Virus record (IMG/VR): IMGVR_UViG_2675903255_000012
Length of the DNA stretch: 11,120 nucleotides
Direction: 5' to 3' (one strand)
Origin: a virus
Taxonomy: Duplodnaviria > Heunggongvirae > Uroviricota > Caudoviricetes
Part shown: positions 2,798-9,956 of the stretch, piece after piece
How positions within the stretch are numbered: the stretch's first letter is position 1
How the letters are laid out: every line of letters starts with the position of its first letter
Position numbers and translations under genes: made by a program
The notes under the pieces: generated by a model
The model's input: only the letters and a program-made list of their open reading frames with translations
The model's database searches: none
Told to the model about the DNA's origin: nothing

Positions 2798-2817
2798 AGG
2801 TCGGTCATGAGCACTAA
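2638..2817 (+). CDS. Small hypothetical protein (59 aa, TTG start), or the C-terminal part of a frameshifted gene begun at 2459
   Basis: Frame +1 is open 2611-2817 and translates to a protein-like sequence (…[54 protein letters not shown]). AAGGAG at 2624-2629 sits 8 nt upstream of TTG 2638; the stop overlaps the O-like start at 2807. Not in the ORF track (below length cutoff). Confidence 0.4.
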
Positions 2818-3748
2818 ATTAACCGGCTATGTATGGGATGGTTGCGCTGCGTCAGGCATGAAGTTATCCAGCGTGGCAATTATGGCCCGCCTGGCTGATT
2901 TCAGTAATGACGAAGGTGTGTGCTGGCCATCAATTGAAACCATTGCCCGCCAGATTGGCGCGGGGATGAGCACCGTCAGAACGGCTATCGCACGGCTGGA
3001 AGCAGAAGGCTGGTTAACGCGTAAGGCGCGTCGCCAGGGTAACCGCAATGCGTCGAATGTTTATCAGCTTAACGTTGCGAAGCTTCAGGCAGCGGCATTT
3101 TCTCAACTGTCAGATTCTGACCCGTCAAAATCTGACGCATCAAAATCTGACCCGTCAAAATTTGATGCGTCGAAATCTGGCAAAAAAGCGGGTTTTCACC
3201 CGTCAGAATCTGGCGGGGATCCGTCAGTAAAATCAAAACATGATCCGTCAGATAAAAAACCTTCTCGTCCGGACGCTTCGCAACCGGACACGCAGACGGA
3301 TGAACAGGATTTTTTAACTCGCCATCCTGATGCGGTTGTATTCAGCCCTAAAAAGCGCCAGTGGGGGACGCAGGATGATTTGACCTGTGCACAGTGGCTC
3401 TGGAAAAAAATCATCGCCCTGTACGAGCATGCCGCCGAATGTGACGGCGAGGTGGTTCGTCCCAAAGAACCGAACTGGACAGCCTGGGCAAACGAAATTC
3501 GCCTGATGTGTGTGCAGGATGGTCGTACTCATAAACAAATCTGCGAGATGTACAGCCGCGTCAGTCGCGATCCGTTCTGGTGCCGTAACGTGCTCAGCCC
3601 GTCGAAGCTGCGGGAAAAATGGGATGAGCTTTCCCTGCGCTTATCGCCGTCCGTCAGCACGTACACCGAAAAACGCGAGGACCCGTACTTCAAAGCCAGT
3701 TACGACAACGTGGACTACAGCCAGATCCCGGCAGGATTCAGGGGGTGA
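2807..3748 (+). CDS. Replication initiation protein (lambda O-like: N-terminal winged-HTH, repetitive linker, C-terminal DnaT-like domain)
   Basis: Position after the cro/CII module; N-terminal HTH (SSVAIMARLADFSNDEGVCWPSIETIARQIGAGMSTVRTAIARLEAEGWL); an iteron array is embedded in the region encoding the low-complexity linker, as in lambda O. Confidence 0.7.
   Translation: MSTKLTGYVWDGCAASGMKLSSVAIMARLADFSNDEGVCWPSIETIARQIGAGMSTVRTAIARLEAEGWLTRKARRQGNRNASNVYQLNVAKLQAAAFSQLSDSDPSKSDASKSDPSKFDASKSGKKAGFHPSESGGDPSVKSKHDPSDKKPSRPDASQPDTQTDEQDFLTRHPDAVVFSPKKRQWGTQDDLTCAQWLWKKIIALYEHAAECDGEVVRPKEPNWTAWANEIRLMCVQDGRTHKQICEMYSRVSRDPFWCRNVLSPSKLREKWDELSLRLSPSVSTYTEKREDPYFKASYDNVDYSQIPAGFRG
3105..3262. 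repeat. Origin-like iteron array inside the O-like gene: about 4-5 tandem ~15-bp units (AAAATCTGAC[C/G]C[G/A]TCA) plus further CCGTCAG copies, followed by an A/T-rich stretch
   Basis: Visible tandem periodicity at 3110-3180 (tctgacccgtcaaaa / tctgacgcatcaaaa / tctgacccgtcaaaa / tttgatgcgtcgaaa); CCGTCAG at about 3200, 3221 and 3245; A/T-rich taaaatcaaaacatgatccgtcagataaaaaac at about 3228-3260. Confidence 0.65.
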
Positions 3749-3750
3749 GC

Positions 3751-4239
3751 ATGAGTCTTTTGAATGACGTTCAGAAATTCATTGAAGCCCATCCGGGCTG
3801 TACTTCCGGAGACATTGCGGATGCTTTTGCAGGTTACTCACGGCAGCGCGTTCTGCAGTCTGCAAGCAAGTTACGTCAGAGTGGGCGTGTGGCTCACCGT
3901 TGTGAAGGGGATACACGCAGACATTTCCCGCGCCTGACTGAGAGAGCGCAGGAGCCGGAACCACAACCAGTTCGTGAAACCAGACCTGTGCGCAATTTCT
4001 ATGTCGGCACTAACGATCCCCGGGTGATTTTGTGCCTGACCCGCCAGGCTGAAGAACTGGAGTCCAGGGGCTTATACCGTCGTGCTGCAACGGTGTGGAT
4101 GGCGGCATTCCGTGAAAGCCACTCCCAGCCAGAACGAAACAATTTTCTGGCGCGTCGTGAGCGGTGCTTACGGAAAAGCAGCAAGCGCGCTGTATCGGGT
4201 GAAGAGTGGTATCTGTCAGGGAATTACGTGGGGGCTTAA
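3751..4239 (+). CDS. PerC-family-like transcriptional regulator with an N-terminal winged-helix-like domain (start may be GTG 3745)
   Basis: C-terminal segment …LESRGLYRRAATVWMAAF…RRERCL… matches the PerC/Pch signature (LE-[KR]GL-x-RRAA-x-W) as I remember it. Overlaps the O-like stop. Confidence 0.5.
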   Translation: MSLLNDVQKFIEAHPGCTSGDIADAFAGYSRQRVLQSASKLRQSGRVAHRCEGDTRRHFPRLTERAQEPEPQPVRETRPVRNFYVGTNDPRVILCLTRQAEELESRGLYRRAATVWMAAFRESHSQPERNNFLARRERCLRKSSKRAVSGEEWYLSGNYVGA

Positions 4240-4892
4240 TGAGTAATAAATATTGCCAGGCGCTGGTGGAGCTGCGGAACAAACCAGCCCATGAACTGAA
4301 GGAAGTGGGCGATCAGTGGCGCACGCCGGACAACATTTTCTGGGGAATTAACACCCTGTTTGGCCCGTTTGTTCTGGATCTGTTCACTGACGGTGATAAC
4401 GCCAAATGTGCCGCTTATTACACTGCGGAAGACAACGCGCTGGCGCATGACTGGTCAGAACGTCTTGCGGAGCTTAAAGGTGCTGCCTTTGGTAATCCCC
4501 CATACAGCCGCGCCAGTCAGCATGAGGGGCAATACATCACCGGCATGCGTTACATCATGAAGCATGCCAGTGCCATGCGTGATAAAGGCGGGCGCTATGT
4601 TTTCCTGATCAAAGCTGCCACCAGCGAAGTGTGGTGGCCGGAAGATGCAGATCATATTGCTTTTATTCGCGGGCGTATTGGTTTTGAACTGCCTGCCTGG
4701 TTTATCCCGAAGGATGAGAAGCAGGTGCCGACAGGCGCTTTCTTCGCTGGTGCTATTGCTGTTTTCGACAAGACCTGGAAGGGACCGGCAATCAGCTACA
4801 TCGGGCGCTATGAACTTGAGGCATGTGGTGAGGCCTTTCTGGCGCAGGTTCGCCAGCAGGCAGAAAAACTGGTCAGGGAGATGGCGGCATGA
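4239..4892 (+). CDS. Phage Dam-family N6-adenine DNA methyltransferase (orphan)
   Basis: …GDQWRTPDNIF… N-terminal motif and NPPY catalytic motif (AFGNPPYS) typical of phage Dam-type MTases; TAATG stop/start overlap with the upstream gene; no restriction endonuclease partner nearby. Confidence 0.75.
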   Translation: MSNKYCQALVELRNKPAHELKEVGDQWRTPDNIFWGINTLFGPFVLDLFTDGDNAKCAAYYTAEDNALAHDWSERLAELKGAAFGNPPYSRASQHEGQYITGMRYIMKHASAMRDKGGRYVFLIKAATSEVWWPEDADHIAFIRGRIGFELPAWFIPKDEKQVPTGAFFAGAIAVFDKTWKGPAISYIGRYELEACGEAFLAQVRQQAEKLVREMAA

Positions 4893-5215
4893 CGACGTTA
4901 ACTCAATGCCAGCAGCAGGTGCTGGATATGCTGATTTCTTATCAGAAAGAACGTGGCTTCCCGCCAACCAATCAGGAGGTGGCAACCATGCTGGGATACC
5001 GTTCAGTGAATGCAGCGGTGGAGCATCTTCGCGCACTGGAGAAAAAAGGCGTCATCACGATAAAGCGTGGCGTGGCCCGGGGGATAACGCTTCATATCGC
5101 GGTGAAGGACGACGACAGCGAGGCGGTCGGGATTATCCGCGCACTGCTTGCCGGTGAGGAAAACGCAAGGCTGCGTGCAACCCACTGGTTACATGAGAGG
5201 GACCTGAAAGTATGA
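4889..5215 (+). CDS. LexA N-terminal DNA-binding-domain homologue lacking the S24 peptidase domain
   Basis: Alignable by eye to the LexA N-terminus (LTQCQQQVLDMLISYQKERGFPPTNQEVATMLGYRSVNAAVEHLRALEKKGVI versus LexA [53 protein letters not shown]); only 108 aa, no Ser/Lys peptidase domain. Confidence 0.7.
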   Translation: MTTLTQCQQQVLDMLISYQKERGFPPTNQEVATMLGYRSVNAAVEHLRALEKKGVITIKRGVARGITLHIAVKDDDSEAVGIIRALLAGEENARLRATHWLHERDLKV

Positions 5216-5601
5216 AGCTGATCCTGCCTTTTCCGCCCAGCGTGAACACGTACTGGCGACACCCCAACAAAGGGGCGTTTGCTGGTAAGAGCCTGATAAG
5301 CGCGGCGGGGCGAAAATTCCAGAGCGCGGCGTGCGCAGCAATAGTTGAGCAGTTACGTCGTCTGCCGAAACCAACGTCGGCACCTGCTTCAGTGGAGATC
5401 GTGTTGTTTCCTCCGGATAACCGGATCCGCGATCTGGACAACTATAACAAGGCGCTGTTTGACGCCCTGACCCACGCGGGTGTGTGGGAAGACGACAGTC
5501 AGGTGAAAAGAATGCTGGTGGAGTGGGGACCGGTTATCCCGGAAGGGAAGGTCGAGATCACTATCAGTAAGTACGAGAAAACGGCGGGTGCAGCCGCCTG
5601 A
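5212..5601 (+). CDS. rusA: Holliday junction resolvase RusA
   Basis: RusA signature …RDLDNYNKALFDALTHAGVWEDDSQV…; about 129 aa; ATGA overlap with the upstream gene. Confidence 0.88.
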   Translation: MKLILPFPPSVNTYWRHPNKGAFAGKSLISAAGRKFQSAACAAIVEQLRRLPKPTSAPASVEIVLFPPDNRIRDLDNYNKALFDALTHAGVWEDDSQVKRMLVEWGPVIPEGKVEITISKYEKTAGAAA

Positions 5602-5620: not shown

Positions 5621-6430
5621 ATGAATAATCTGATGGTCATTGATGGTATTGAAGTTCGTCGTGATGCTTATGGGCGTTACAGCCTGAACGATCTGCATCG
5701 CGCAGCAGTAGCATCTGGTGCAAATGCCAGAACCAAGGAGCCGGGAAAGTTTCTTTCCAGCCAACAAACTGTTGAGCTTGTTCATGAATTGACCAACACC
5801 CAGAATTTGGGTGTTGACCCGGTGAGTGTGATTCATGGGGGAAATGAACGGGGAACGTATGTCTGCAAGGAACTGGTGTATGCCTATGCAATGTGGATCA
5901 GCCCGTCATTCCATCTGAAGGTGATCCGTACTTTCGATATGGTAACCAGCGCACCGGAAAAATTATCCGGACAGGCTGCTGACAAGATGCAGGCTGGCGT
6001 GATCCTGCTGGACTTTATGCGCCGGGAGTTAAACCTGTCTAACTCTTCAGTGCTTGGTGCCTGTCAGAAACTCCAGGAGGCTGTTGGCTTACCGAATCTG
6101 GCACCGCGCTATGCCATTGATGCTCCTGCTGACGCGCCTGATGGCTCAAGCCGCCCCACGCTATCATTGAGTGCACTGCTGAAGCAGTATGGTATCCGCC
6201 TGACAGCTAATCAGGCATATCACCAGATGGCGAAGCTGGGGATCGTTGAACAACGTGAACGATACAGCCGCACTGCGATTAACAACATCAAAAAATTCTG
6301 GTCGCTGACAGCGAAAGGCTGCATGTTCGGCAAGAACATCACCAGTCCCGCAAATCCGCGCGAGACGCAGCCGCATTTCTTCGAATCCCGATTCCCTGAG
6401 CTGTTAAAGCTGCTCGATACCGTTCATTGA
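5621..6430 (+). CDS. KilA-N domain protein (antirepressor-like DNA-binding protein)
   Basis: N-terminal KilA-N-like region (IDGIEVRRDAYGRYSLNDLHRA… YAYAMWISPSFHLKVIRTF); AAGAGGAG SD 9 nt upstream of the ATG. Confidence 0.7.
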   Translation: MNNLMVIDGIEVRRDAYGRYSLNDLHRAAVASGANARTKEPGKFLSSQQTVELVHELTNTQNLGVDPVSVIHGGNERGTYVCKELVYAYAMWISPSFHLKVIRTFDMVTSAPEKLSGQAADKMQAGVILLDFMRRELNLSNSSVLGACQKLQEAVGLPNLAPRYAIDAPADAPDGSSRPTLSLSALLKQYGIRLTANQAYHQMAKLGIVEQRERYSRTAINNIKKFWSLTAKGCMFGKNITSPANPRETQPHFFESRFPELLKLLDTVH

Positions 6431-6431
6431 G

Positions 6432-7427
6432 GTGACCGTGAGAGCACTACTGACTCCTGAAATTGCCCCGCGTATGGGGATCGTATTGTTCAGGCCAGGT
6501 TCAGAGCTGATGCCCCTGTTTATGCAGGGGCGTGTCCTGCTGGAGCCTGAGCCGGAACGTTATTCATCTTTCGCCAGTGGTGCCGTTCCGGCGGCATCAC
6601 AACCGCTGGCGGATGATCCTGCCGTTCGGGCCGTGTTCCGCAATGAGGCAGTGATCCGTCGTGCTGGTGGCGTGGAATGTCTTGAAAGCTGGTTACTTCG
6701 TGAAAAAGGCTGCCAGTGGCCTCATTCCGACTGGCACAGCGAGAACATGACCACAATGCGACACGCTCCGGGCGCAATCCGTCTGTGCTGGCACTGCGAT
6801 AACCAGCTGCGCGATCAGTTCACGGAACGGCTGGAATCAATGGCAACGGATAACTGTGCCCGCTGGGTGTTGTCTGTTGTGCGTCGGGATCTCGGTTTTG
6901 ATGACAGTCACGTTGTGACAATGCCGGAACTGTGCTGGTGGCTGATTCGTAATGACCTGGCGGATGCCTTACCGGAAAGTGCAGCCCGTAAGGCACTTAG
7001 ATTACCGAAGCCTGTTGTGCCGTCTGTTACCCGGGAAAGTGACCTTGTGCCTTCGGTTCCTGCCACCAGCATCATCCAGGATAAAGCGAAAAAGGTGCTG
7101 GCGCTGAAAGTGGATCCTGAGTCGCCGGAGTCTTTTATGTTACGCCCAAAACGTCGCCGCTGGGTTAATGAAAAGTACACGCGCTGGGTTAAGACACAGC
7201 CGTGTGCATGTTGTGGAAAGCCTGCTGATGATCCCCACCACCTGATAGGTCACGGTCAGGGAGGAATGGGTACAAAAGCGCATGACCTCTTTGTGTTGCC
7301 TTTGTGCAGAAAGCATCACGACGAGCTGCATGCGGATACCGTGGCATTTGAAGAGAAGTATGGCTCCCAGCTGGAGCTGATATTTCGTTTTATCGATCGT
7401 GCGCTGGCAATAGGCGTACTGGCGTAA
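6432..7427 (+). CDS. DUF968-like phage protein with a C-terminal Cys/His (HNH-like) motif; GTG start uncertain
   Basis: C-terminal CACCGKPADDPHHLIGHGQGGMGTKAHDLFVLPLCRKHHDELH; lies immediately upstream of Q, as I recall ydfU-quuQ does in the K-12 Qin prophage. Start codon position is uncertain (GTG 6432, GTG 6438 or a downstream ATG). Confidence 0.55.
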   Translation: MTVRALLTPEIAPRMGIVLFRPGSELMPLFMQGRVLLEPEPERYSSFASGAVPAASQPLADDPAVRAVFRNEAVIRRAGGVECLESWLLREKGCQWPHSDWHSENMTTMRHAPGAIRLCWHCDNQLRDQFTERLESMATDNCARWVLSVVRRDLGFDDSHVVTMPELCWWLIRNDLADALPESAARKALRLPKPVVPSVTRESDLVPSVPATSIIQDKAKKVLALKVDPESPESFMLRPKRRRWVNEKYTRWVKTQPCACCGKPADDPHHLIGHGQGGMGTKAHDLFVLPLCRKHHDELHADTVAFEEKYGSQLELIFRFIDRALAIGVLA

Positions 7428-7440
7428 GTGGAGAACGAGC

Positions 7441-8193
7441 ATGAACTTTGAAGCCTTACCGAAATATTACTCCCCAAAATCTCCAAAATTGAGCGATGAC
7501 GCACCGGCGACAGGCTCTGGTGGTTTAACAATTACGGATGTAATGGCTGCGCAGGGGATGGTGCAGTCGAAAGCACCGCTTGGGTTTGCCTTATTCCTGG
7601 CAAAAGTTGGTGTTCAGGATCCTCAGTTTGCGATTGAAGGTCTGCTCAATTACGCGATGGCACTGGATAACCCGACATTGAACAAATTGAGTGAAGAAAC
7701 CCGGCTACAGATCATTCCTTACCTTGTGAATTTTGCCTTTGCTGATTATTCCAGGTCTGCGGCAAGTAAGGCTCGCTGTGAGCATTGTGCTGGTACTGGA
7801 TTTCATGATGTATTGCGCGAGGTGGTGAAACACTCCAGAAGCGGGGAATCTGTTATCAAGGAAGAGTGGGTGAAGGAACTGTGTCAGCATTGTCATGGTA
7901 AGGGAGAAGTCAGCACAGCGTGCAGAGGGTGTAAGGGTAAAGGTATTGTCCTGGATGAAAAAAGAACCAGGCTTCATGGCACGCCTGTTTATAAGGTTTG
8001 TGGGCGTTGCAATGGAAACCGGTTTAGCCGTTTACCAACCACACTGGCGCGGCTTCATGTCCAGAAGCTGGTACCAGACCTGACGGATTATCAGTGGTAC
8101 AAAGGATATGCAGATGTCATTGATAAACTGGTTACAAAGTGCTGGCAGGAAGAAGCGTATGCTGAGACACAATTGAGGAAAGTGACGAGATGA
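7441..8193 (+). CDS. Late-gene antitermination protein Q (phage 82/Qin QuuQ-like)
   Basis: 250 aa with Cys-rich zinc-binding motifs (CEHCAGTG…CQHCHGKGE…CRGCKGKG…CGRCNGN); followed within 60 bp by a strong promoter and a short-transcript terminator, the pR'/tR' arrangement. Confidence 0.8.
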   Translation: MNFEALPKYYSPKSPKLSDDAPATGSGGLTITDVMAAQGMVQSKAPLGFALFLAKVGVQDPQFAIEGLLNYAMALDNPTLNKLSEETRLQIIPYLVNFAFADYSRSAASKARCEHCAGTGFHDVLREVVKHSRSGESVIKEEWVKELCQHCHGKGEVSTACRGCKGKGIVLDEKRTRLHGTPVYKVCGRCNGNRFSRLPTTLARLHVQKLVPDLTDYQWYKGYADVIDKLVTKCWQEEAYAETQLRKVTR

Positions 8194-8347: not shown

Positions 8348-8377
8348 TTGAAATGGTATTCGGCGAGTAGGTAGAAT
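8348..8377 (+). promoter_or_regulatory. Candidate autonomous promoter of the cargo cassette (TTGAAA-N18-TAGAAT)
   Basis: Sigma70-like hexamers located between tR' and the cargo ORF. Confidence 0.45.
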
Positions 8378-8404: not shown

Positions 8405-8947
8405 ATGATGTTTCAAGCCTTCCAAACAGCAGTATTTAAAAATGTTGCAGAGTATTTAAAAGGGCGCTTCCCTCATAAGTCGTTAGGGCTCGTATATGCC
8501 GACGAGCTGGTACTAAAAGATATGGAGTTCCTCAAGGCTAACAATAAACTGCGGTGGGATCCCGGACTAAAGTCGCGAGTGTTTATGGATATGATGGAAG
8601 AACACCCGATAAAACTAGTTGTTTATTATCGTGGGGAGCCTATTGGATTTGCATTTGGGTGTTACTGTAAGCCGAAAAATGCGGTGCATATTTGCTGGAT
8701 GGAAAAACGTAATGATGCACATGAAGACCTAGACCATCAGATGCTTGGTATCGTTTTGGATTGCTTCTCTGCATATGCACGATTTCTGAACCTTCAGGGT
8801 GAATCTATTGATTCGATAGCTTTAGTTAGTCCAGTTGATGGGGCAATAAGATACTATACTGAAAGTGGTTTTGAGTACATTGCTGATTACGAACGAGGTG
8901 GTTGCGCAATGGTGCTTAGGAGCGTTTTACCTAACCAATCAGTGTGA
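8405..8947 (+). CDS. Cargo (moron) protein, 180 aa, GNAT-fold-like putative acyltransferase; function unknown
   Basis: AT-rich with atypical codon usage compared with flanking phage genes; C-terminal region resembles the GNAT motif (…SIALVSPVDGAIRYYTESGFEYIADYE…) and β-strand-like KLVVYYRGEPIGFAFG, but the canonical R/Q-x-x-G-x-G/A acetyl-CoA motif is not evident. Confidence 0.45.
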   Translation: MMFQAFQTAVFKNVAEYLKGRFPHKSLGLVYADELVLKDMEFLKANNKLRWDPGLKSRVFMDMMEEHPIKLVVYYRGEPIGFAFGCYCKPKNAVHICWMEKRNDAHEDLDHQMLGIVLDCFSAYARFLNLQGESIDSIALVSPVDGAIRYYTESGFEYIADYERGGCAMVLRSVLPNQSV

Positions 8948-9138
8948 GTTAGATTCTTAATTTCTCCAGAATCATTACAAAAGTATTGAAAACCTCTTTT
9001 AGTTGATGCAATCTGGATCCACACAAAGCACACACAAAATGTACTACGCTTTACTTTATACATCTTCAGGTAACAAACTTTGTTGCCTTTATGCTTCAAA
9101 GAAGCAACTACAGCTTAGTGCTGAACAAGGGGATTTTT

Positions 9139-9324
9139 ATGAAACATCATGAGCAGATAGAGATTGAGGCAGCTAAAGTCGTCGCCGAACTCTTTGCTGG
9201 CAATGCATCTCCAATGGAAACCTTTGGTATTACATGGAGTCAAACTCAGATGTTAGAGCGTAAGAATCCTGGTGTAGTGATCAAACTAGTACCGGATGAC
9301 GGTAAAAAACTTGCGTATTGCTGA
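9139..9324 (+). CDS. Small cargo protein (61 aa), hypothetical; candidate partner of the 8405-8947 gene
   Basis: AAGGGGA SD 5 nt upstream of the ATG; AT-rich; followed by a terminator; same orientation and same cassette as the GNAT-like ORF. Confidence 0.4.
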   Translation: MKHHEQIEIEAAKVVAELFAGNASPMETFGITWSQTQMLERKNPGVVIKLVPDDGKKLAYC

Positions 9325-9581: not shown

Positions 9582-9956
9582 TTGAGACAATCCTACCACC
9601 AGTTGGTGGTATCTCATGATTCACTGAATTGCAAATCTTCTGAATTGCTGGATGAGTTTAAATCTCACCGGCGCTATTTCTCCGTATCAGTCTCCGTGCC
9701 TTATACCGATGTCAGGACGCATAAGCCCGTTCAGTTCTACCCGGGTAAACATCCGTGCGAGAAACCGGCGGATATGCTCAGGCAAATAATCAATGCCAGT
9801 AGTCGACCTGGTGATCTGGTTGCTGATTTCTTTATGGGATTCGGTTCCACAATAAAAGCAGCAATGGCGCTGGGGCGTCGGGCGTTAGGTGTTTAACTTG
9901 AGTCAGAGCGGTTTAATCAGACGGTGAAAGAGGTAAGTGAACTGGTGGGGAAATAA
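9582..9956 (+). pseudogene. 3' remnant of an N6/N4 DNA methyltransferase gene (C-terminal motifs only), interrupted by an in-frame TAA at 9894
   Basis: …GKHPCEKPADMLRQIINASSRPGDLVADFFMGFGSTIKAAMALGRRALGV carries the HP-x-x-KP and FxGxG AdoMet-binding motifs that sit at the C-terminus of beta-class MTases; no DPPY-type N-terminal half upstream (AT-rich non-coding DNA). The frame continues protein-like after the TAA (LESERFNQTVKEVSELVGK). Confidence 0.55.

Follow-up and report, generated by a model that had tools for sequence, protein, structure and literature searches.

A LexA-type winged-helix protein without a cleavage domain and with a conserved C-terminal hairpin in lambdoid phages of enterobacteria

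The DNA analyzed in this work (IMG/VR virus record IMGVR_UViG_2675903255_000012, Caudoviricetes; 11,120 nucleotides, the whole of which is hereafter called the window) harbors, at 4889..5215 on the + strand, a small LexA-like gene with an ATG start and a TGA stop, coding for a protein of 108 amino acids (aa). The protein is composed of a winged helix-turn-helix domain (aa 1-68; 4889..5092, +), delimited by the secondary structure of an AlphaFold model and by the Foldseek alignment to the LexA structure 3JSO, followed by a linker (aa 69-74) and by a two-helix hairpin (aa 75-102, with helices at 75-88 and 93-102; 5111..5194, +), recognized in the AlphaFold model and in the family alignment. The gene is embedded between two others on the same strand, one for a Dam-like N6-adenine methyltransferase (4239..4892; PF05869, E=5e-45, in agreement with the RefSeq annotation of an identical copy) and one for a RusA Holliday-junction resolvase (5212..5601; PF05866, E=6e-15), and it overlaps both of them by an ATGA tetranucleotide, its ATG sharing 4889-4892 with the Dam stop codon and its own stop sharing 5212-5215 with the ATG of rusA. 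We define here the corresponding enterobacterial phage family as proteins of 105-135 aa formed by a LexA winged helix-turn-helix, a short linker and a conserved two-helix tail, and encoded in the nin region, usually just 5' of rusA; the window's protein shows each of these features in the alignments, the structure and the genomic context.

The original prediction, according to which the N-terminal part of the protein is the winged-helix domain of LexA, was confirmed by both sequence and structure. The Pfam profile PF01726 (LexA_DNA_bind) matches residues 1-65 over its entire length (profile positions 1-65 of 65; E=2.9e-19; 69 bits, with a cut-off of 23.7). E. coli LexA in the PDB is retrieved by phmmer with an E-value of about 1e-15, and 34 of the 68 residues that align with E. 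coli LexA residues 2-69 are identical (50%). The whole protein (residues 1-108) also matches PHROG 362 (profile positions 1-106 of 106; E=2.1e-58), whose name, 'transcriptional repressor', is an annotation and not a tested function. The AlphaFold model, built from an input of 15 family sequences and having a mean predicted local distance difference test (pLDDT) score of 84, contains helices at 6-22 and 28-35, a recognition helix at 40-52 and a beta wing at 56-58/66-68, and it superimposes on DNA-bound LexA (3JSO) with a root-mean-square deviation of 1.1 Å over 68 residues (Foldseek). A similarity of this extent is far beyond chance, and the protein is a true homologue of LexA's DNA-binding domain.

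The absence of the S24 peptidase domain, also stated in the original prediction, was borne out. Indeed, no Pfam match to Peptidase_S24 was found in the protein, the chain ends at residue 108, and the NCBIfam profile for the LexA equivalog (TIGR00498) is covered only from position 1 to position 91 of 203, with a score of 69.3 bits against a cut-off of 110.95. The HMMER alignment to LexA continues up to residue 90 of the query and pairs A88-G89 with A84-G85 of LexA; the possibility that this dipeptide represents a remnant of the cleavage site was ruled out, since it is not conserved (relatives have AN, VG, ER, TR, DD, SG and others at this position) and since it sits within a helix that AlphaFold predicts confidently. 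On the basis of the missing S24 domain and of the lack of a conserved Ala-Gly, RecA-stimulated self-cleavage is not expected, and the idea that the protein cannot be removed in this way agrees with both the alignments and the model.

The hairpin that occupies the C-terminal part was newly noticed here, and it is a family-specific module that corresponds neither to the LexA hinge nor to the cleavage site. It consists of two short amphipathic helices, modelled with a pLDDT of about 88 (62 for the linker, aa 69-74), whose hydrophobic positions (80, 82, 83, 86, 87, 93, 97, 100 and 101) are kept down to about 40% identity, A97 being found in 99% and L101 in 96% of the sequences. A search of PDB sequences with the tail alone gave no match, and Foldseek with the full-length model gave only weak matches (E about 0.09) to winged-helix repressors possessing helical dimerization domains (MecI/BlaI, MepR). 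Given the small size of the hairpin, the simplest reading of the model, which is that of a single chain, is that it forms one half of a four-helix dimer interface, and it is thus probably a dimerization module. LexA dimerizes via its C-terminal domain, whose role in dimerization the hairpin would replace; because that domain is absent from the phage protein, the heterodimerization with LexA that the original prediction had entertained is unlikely. A further observation concerns several proteins of 140-350 aa (the search matches P0129, P0130, P0148, P0149 and others) that align with the query twice, over distinct segments, and may therefore hold LexA DNA-binding domains in tandem as single-chain 'dimers'.

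As far as the reading of DNA is concerned, LexA is reported to contact DNA through Ser39, Asn41, Ala42, Glu44 and Glu45 (PMC3091678, PMC13416735), and Asn41 reads operator position 15 via a bridging water molecule (PMC5999292). The corresponding stretch of the phage gene (codons 39-45, S-V-N-A-A-V-E; 5003..5023, +) retains four of these five base-contact residues (S39, N41, A42 and E45), as an alignment of the recognition helix confirmed, and carries V in place of E at position 44; His46, Lys53 and Arg64-Gly65 are likewise common to LexA and to the window's protein. Among 118 distinct family sequences, S39 and N41 are invariant, A is found at position 42 in 93% and H at position 46 in 98%, and 99% share R-G-I at positions 64-66. 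For the window allele (AAVEH), a LexA-like reading of DNA is therefore a reasonable expectation from its residues.

The gene is annotated and very common. It was found in 50 phage records, including SfV, SfII, mEp460, Ayreon, Kati and many phages converting for Shiga toxin 2c (Stx2c), under such names as 'unknown' (orf42 of SfV) and 'LexA DNA binding domain protein' (SfII and mEp460), and in 2233 of 5426 complete E. coli genomes (41%), where RefSeq calls it 'LexA family transcriptional regulator'; named relatives exist in Salmonella, Citrobacter, Cronobacter and Hafnia. The 87 full-length copies represent 48 distinct nucleotide alleles, across which the recognition helix is invariant. All 48 are intact and the ratio of nonsynonymous to synonymous polymorphism (pN/pS) is 0.10, from which it follows that the gene is functional and under purifying selection. 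More generally, the BFVD database contains short 'LexA DNA-binding domain' proteins from many unrelated phages (mycobacteriophage Wildcat, tectiviruses, uncultured Caudovirales), so that stand-alone LexA domains of phages are a recognized kind at the level of annotation. In the literature searched, no functional study of this enterobacterial family was found, and the gp6 protein of phage GIL01 alone turned up. A scan of genome contigs returned such an excess of true lexA genes from Halomonas and its relatives that it was uninformative on the family. A separate case is that of the Cronobacter turicensis chromosome (L008, 10001-10330), where a 50% identical family member is an intact open reading frame (ORF) beside an integrase, in what appears to be the remnant of a prophage in advanced decay, and neither Dam nor RusA is called next to it; this single case may hint that the gene can be kept for the benefit of the host.

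The LexA-like gene belongs to a block of rightward genes (all on the + strand) that are densely packed from an O-like replication gene (2807-3748) through the gene for the Q antiterminator (7441-8193; PF03589, E=8e-53). Directly 5' of the Dam gene lies a PerC-like gene (3745-4239) for a PerC-family, yfdN-like putative transcriptional activator; in pathogenic E. coli, PerC/Pch homologues encoded by prophages are known to regulate virulence genes. On the other side, rusA is followed after 20 bp, with no LexA box in the gap, by a KilA-N gene (5621-6430) and then by a DUF968 gene (6432-7427). The window also contains cro, a cII-like gene, and holin and endolysin genes. A consensus scan revealed no sigma-70 promoter or terminator on the + strand between cro and the LexA-like gene; from this and from the tight packing we infer that the gene is part of the early operon transcribed rightward in a lambdoid E. 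coli prophage of the same type as SfV, SfII and mEp460. Just 3' of Q, a promoter match of 10/12 (8348-8377) is probably the late promoter. The cI-type repressor gene (868-1560, -; named cI in SfII) codes for HTH_3 and Peptidase_S24 (E=6e-19) domains, and its sequence, read directly, has the Ala-Gly (SASAGNG), the GDSM serine motif and the VKRL lysine motif; in accordance with what had been claimed for it, the product is predicted to be a RecA-cleavable, self-cleaving repressor.

Some features of the window stand apart from this operon. At its left end, a fragment of an IS3-family transposase gene (rve integrase core; 14-478, -) runs past the window edge and adjoins the immunity region. At the same place the otherwise identical prophage of strain 7784 (L001) harbors yfdT/yfdR-type early-left genes, so that, on the left side of cI, the window's copy seems to be disrupted. 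Two ORFs of 180 aa (8405-8947) and 77 aa (9091-9324), situated between Q and the lysis genes, have no match in Pfam or PADLOC, the only PADLOC hit obtained being marginal and irrelevant. The 180-aa ORF, located just 3' of the putative late promoter, is found in only 5 of 80 related loci and is therefore probably a moron, that is, an inserted accessory gene.

We compared the neighborhoods of the gene in two sets of viral loci: a close set of 80, whose protein is 97-100% identical to that of the window, and a divergent set of 122 (viral contigs L174-L298), comprising three subfamilies. In the close set the most constant companions are RusA and the PerC-like protein (77 loci each), KilA-N (76) and DUF968 (72), followed by Dam (59), and the cI allele of the window occurs in 35. 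RusA lies immediately 3' in 92 of the divergent loci, and the order LexA-like gene then rusA is found in Salmonella, Citrobacter and Cronobacter copies as well; the genes on the 5' side vary (a C5 methylase, an MT-A70 methylase or a 75-aa ORF in the divergent set). In the branch represented by P0137 (28 loci), a 67-aa ORF and DUF968 take the place of RusA downstream. Of the two neighbors to which the gene was originally proposed to be translationally coupled, RusA is a partner nearly throughout, and Dam is not an obligate one, being absent from 21 of the 80 close loci and from the 5' side of the gene in phage Ayreon.

The window contains one outstanding LexA site, located at 1332-1351 (no strand assigned) inside the linker codons of cI. 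Its sequence, TACTGTTTTTATATACAGTA, scores 18/20 against the consensus, 300 shuffles having given no more than 16, and in the sense strand of cI it reads TACTGTATATAAAAACAGTA, the very sequence of the sbmC and umuD LexA operators (PMC3009722, Table 4). The cI gene of mEp460, an allele with 7% divergence, keeps the CTGT and ACAG cores and has changes in neighboring codons. The site occurs in 32 of the 80 close loci, always together with this cI allele; judging from its sequence it may be a top-affinity LexA operator and a possible target for LexA-type proteins. A promoter at this box was considered and set aside, as no sigma-70 consensus was found near it and direct reading revealed weak hexamers only. 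The box might serve as a roadblock, belong to an internal or antisense promoter under LexA control, or control a truncated C-terminal cI product that starts at Met92.

Other LexA boxes are found in relatives. In 22 of the 80 close loci, a late-region gene for an N6/N4 DNA methylase, situated between Q and the holin gene, has a second one, TACTGTAAAAATAAACAGTG (16/20), at its 5' end. Carriers of this box include SfV, Stx2c phages and Ayreon (L004 12907-12926, L005 16597-16616, L006 13597-13616), and its position suggests that the methylase is SOS-controlled; in the window the box is gone and the methylase is a 5'-truncated remnant (9582-9896; a PF01555 fragment). In three close loci rusA and a variant KilA-N gene are separated by 150 bp that contain a box (L053 10765-10784), and the KilA-N product, possibly antirepressor-like, may be under SOS control there. 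In the P0137 branch, a box of 17-20/20 directly precedes a DinI gene (PF06183, E=1e-23). A 101-aa ORF separates the latter from the LexA-like gene downstream, and no convincing terminator was found between the two; in this branch the LexA-like gene lies in physical linkage with the gene of an SOS modulator and may be inducible by SOS. In relatives of this P0137 type (L207, also L190-L218) the genes directly 5' of the LexA-like gene form an SOS-related cluster, in which two very strong boxes of 20/20 (6836-6855 in L207) and 18/20 (7320-7339) each stand ahead of a small gene. The second of these genes codes for a DinI homologue, and the first is an unannotated 109-aa ORF starting MGFPSPAKDYAEQ, with no Pfam match; its N-terminus resembles UmuD' by eye, an identity that we do not claim.

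How does this protein relate to known systems? With E. coli LexA (1LEA, 3JSO) it shares the fold and the residues described above; it differs in the lack of the S24 peptidase/dimerization domain and of a conserved cleavage site, in the replacement of Glu44 by Val, in having its own C-terminal helical hairpin and a score below the TIGR00498 cut-off, and in its location in a phage early lytic operon. The LexA(1-84) autocleavage fragment and non-cleavable (Ind-) LexA mutants retain some repressor activity in E. coli, and the natural fragment, which possesses no dimerization module, is removed by ClpXP by way of the newly formed C-terminus. Like these forms, the phage protein has a DNA-binding module of the LexA type that is not removable by RecA; it differs from them in its own tail, ending in ...LKV, and in being under purifying selection. 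The mobile-element proteins that dampen or reshape the SOS response (DinI-like proteins, one of which is encoded directly 5' in one branch of the family, gp7 of GIL01 and plasmid PsiB) act on the RecA or LexA protein, whereas this DNA-binding domain would act at operators. The BlaI/MecI-type repressors, hit weakly by Foldseek, also have a winged helix followed by dimerizing helices; they constitute a different family with no sequence relationship, and the analogy is one of architecture only. A preprint on a 'bully phage' was considered as a source for the mechanism and set aside, since the effector there is Cro and not the LexA-like gene.

The closest characterized analogue, and the only characterized truncated LexA homologue of a phage, is gp6 of GIL01, a tectivirus of Bacillus thuringiensis. 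This 66-aa protein activates the late promoter P3 from a binding site of its own, distinct from LexA sites and overlapping the -35 element, and host LexA together with gp7 acts as a repressor (PMC6182141). Both proteins are encoded by phages wired to host LexA and consist essentially of a LexA DNA-binding domain devoid of the cleavage domain; they differ in that gp6 has no C-terminal hairpin and is a proven activator. BLASTP revealed no alignment between them at E<=100, from which we take it, on sequence grounds, that they are independent captures of LexA's DNA-binding domain, of which phages would have made at least two.

We propose that the gene encodes a small winged-helix protein of the LexA type that RecA cannot inactivate and that is most likely dimeric through its own hairpin. 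Produced from the operon running from cro to Q, it would be made mainly after prophage induction or infection, and the window's E. coli-type allele, since it keeps Ser39, Asn41, Ala42 and Glu45, most likely binds CTGT-type operators resembling LexA boxes. Its role would be to bring back repression of the LexA type after the destruction of the host's own LexA, with the consequence that host SOS genes would be dampened along with the LexA-controlled genes of this and of co-resident phages, the phage targets in view being the operator inside cI in the window and the dinI, KilA-N and methylase genes in relatives. The fact that these phages are wired to LexA, through the operator internal to cI and the boxes of the methylase, KilA-N and P0137-branch dinI genes, counts in favor of this proposal, to which we assign a probability of roughly 0.38. 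In a more far-reaching form, the protein would be a dimeric, RecA-proof LexA surrogate of lambdoid E. coli phages, Stx2-converting ones included, that is switched on after induction, re-occupies SOS operators when host LexA has disappeared, shuts off the host SOS response and silences both the LexA-controlled genes and the antirepressors of rival prophages; differences in the recognition helix from allele to allele would then represent a diversification of targets among phages. This extended form appears doubtful to us.

Several observations weigh against the restoration of LexA-type repression, and most of them favor a different reading, in which the LexA fold would be a borrowed scaffold for a transcription factor specific to the phage. 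Its operator would be its own, different from the host SOS box and dependent on the allele, and it would act as a repressor or as a gp6-like activator of lytic phage genes. Position 44 is never Glu among the 118 family sequences (A, V, F or T), and position 45 is E in 60%, A in 18%, L in 12% and S in 5% of them, other members having D, T, G or I (D, G and I in single members). Enterobacterial hosts share one LexA specificity, so that a family selected purely to imitate LexA should not vary at position 45. Across 82 loci, identity to the query is 42-51% for the LexA-like protein (median 45%) and 64-83% for the adjacent RusA (median 75%), and the nucleotide homology with L219 begins again precisely where rusA starts; for these reasons the LexA-like gene behaves as a fast-diverging or exchangeable cassette ahead of a conserved rusA. 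Variability at position 45 combined with fast divergence suggests a diversifying DNA specificity rather than a uniform LexA mimicry. Moreover, a strong LexA box within 10 kb is missing in 32 of the 80 close loci, and an obligate link in cis between the gene and such boxes was ruled out, given that the boxes track the cI allele or the methylase. Nor does the presence of strong boxes correlate in a simple way with residue 45: they were found in 13 of 51 loci of the E45 group (AAAEH), in none of the 26 A45 loci and in all 17 L45 loci, the opposite of a plain link between Glu45 and the box. The precedent of gp6, an activator at a non-LexA site, points in the same direction. Against an operator of its own stand the failure to find a candidate for it, a census of 4-mer-N8 palindromes by allele group in the flanks having revealed no allele-specific palindrome, the lack of CTGT half-sites in the cI/cro operators of the window, the near-invariance of Ser39, Asn41 and Ala42 along with the Glu45 of the window allele, and the fact that late genes are already served by the Q antiterminator. 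A covariation of residue 45 with a palindromic site was likewise tried and ruled out, the pattern of boxes reflecting the relatedness of the phages and not specificity. Overall, we regard a phage-specific operator as the main rival explanation, possible but somewhat unlikely.

The constancy of RusA raises the question of whether the protein might instead bind DNA as an accessory of RusA in recombination or replication, for instance by directing or modulating the resolution of junctions, and not be a regulator of transcription at all. The resolvase gene lies directly 3', usually overlapping or tightly packed, in the large majority of the close and divergent loci, this adjacency holds down to about 40% identity and in elements of Salmonella, Citrobacter and Cronobacter, and the upstream genes change (Dam, C5 methylase, MT-A70, small ORFs). 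A fixed gene order is, however, common in the nin regions of lambdoid phages without functional coupling, the 28 loci of the P0137 branch dispense with RusA at this place, and the invariance of Ser39 and Asn41 points to base-specific reading; to our knowledge, RusA has no known partner of this kind. We consider such an accessory role improbable. As for the idea of a decaying, functionless remnant of a captured lexA, to which the resemblance to the first 90 residues of LexA, with an alignment running through the hinge to Ala-Gly, might lead, it is refuted by the 48 intact alleles out of 48 and their low pN/pS; the tail hairpin, confidently predicted and conserved to about 40% identity, and the presence of the gene in so many complete E. 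coli genomes speak against it as well, and it can hardly be credited.

Truncated phage LexA homologues were thus already a known kind with one characterized example. The interest of the enterobacterial family lies also in its carriers, which comprise, besides about 41% of complete E. coli genomes, serotype-converting phages of Shigella and Stx2c phages. Since the release of Shiga toxin in Stx phages is driven by SOS induction, this gene could matter clinically. If LexA-type repression is re-imposed by this protein, the phages would be able to switch the SOS response off, prophages would have a way of competing with one another, and the protein would be a natural non-cleavable LexA, usable as a tool; if it acts at an operator of its own instead, it would be an unrecognized regulator within a very common phage module.

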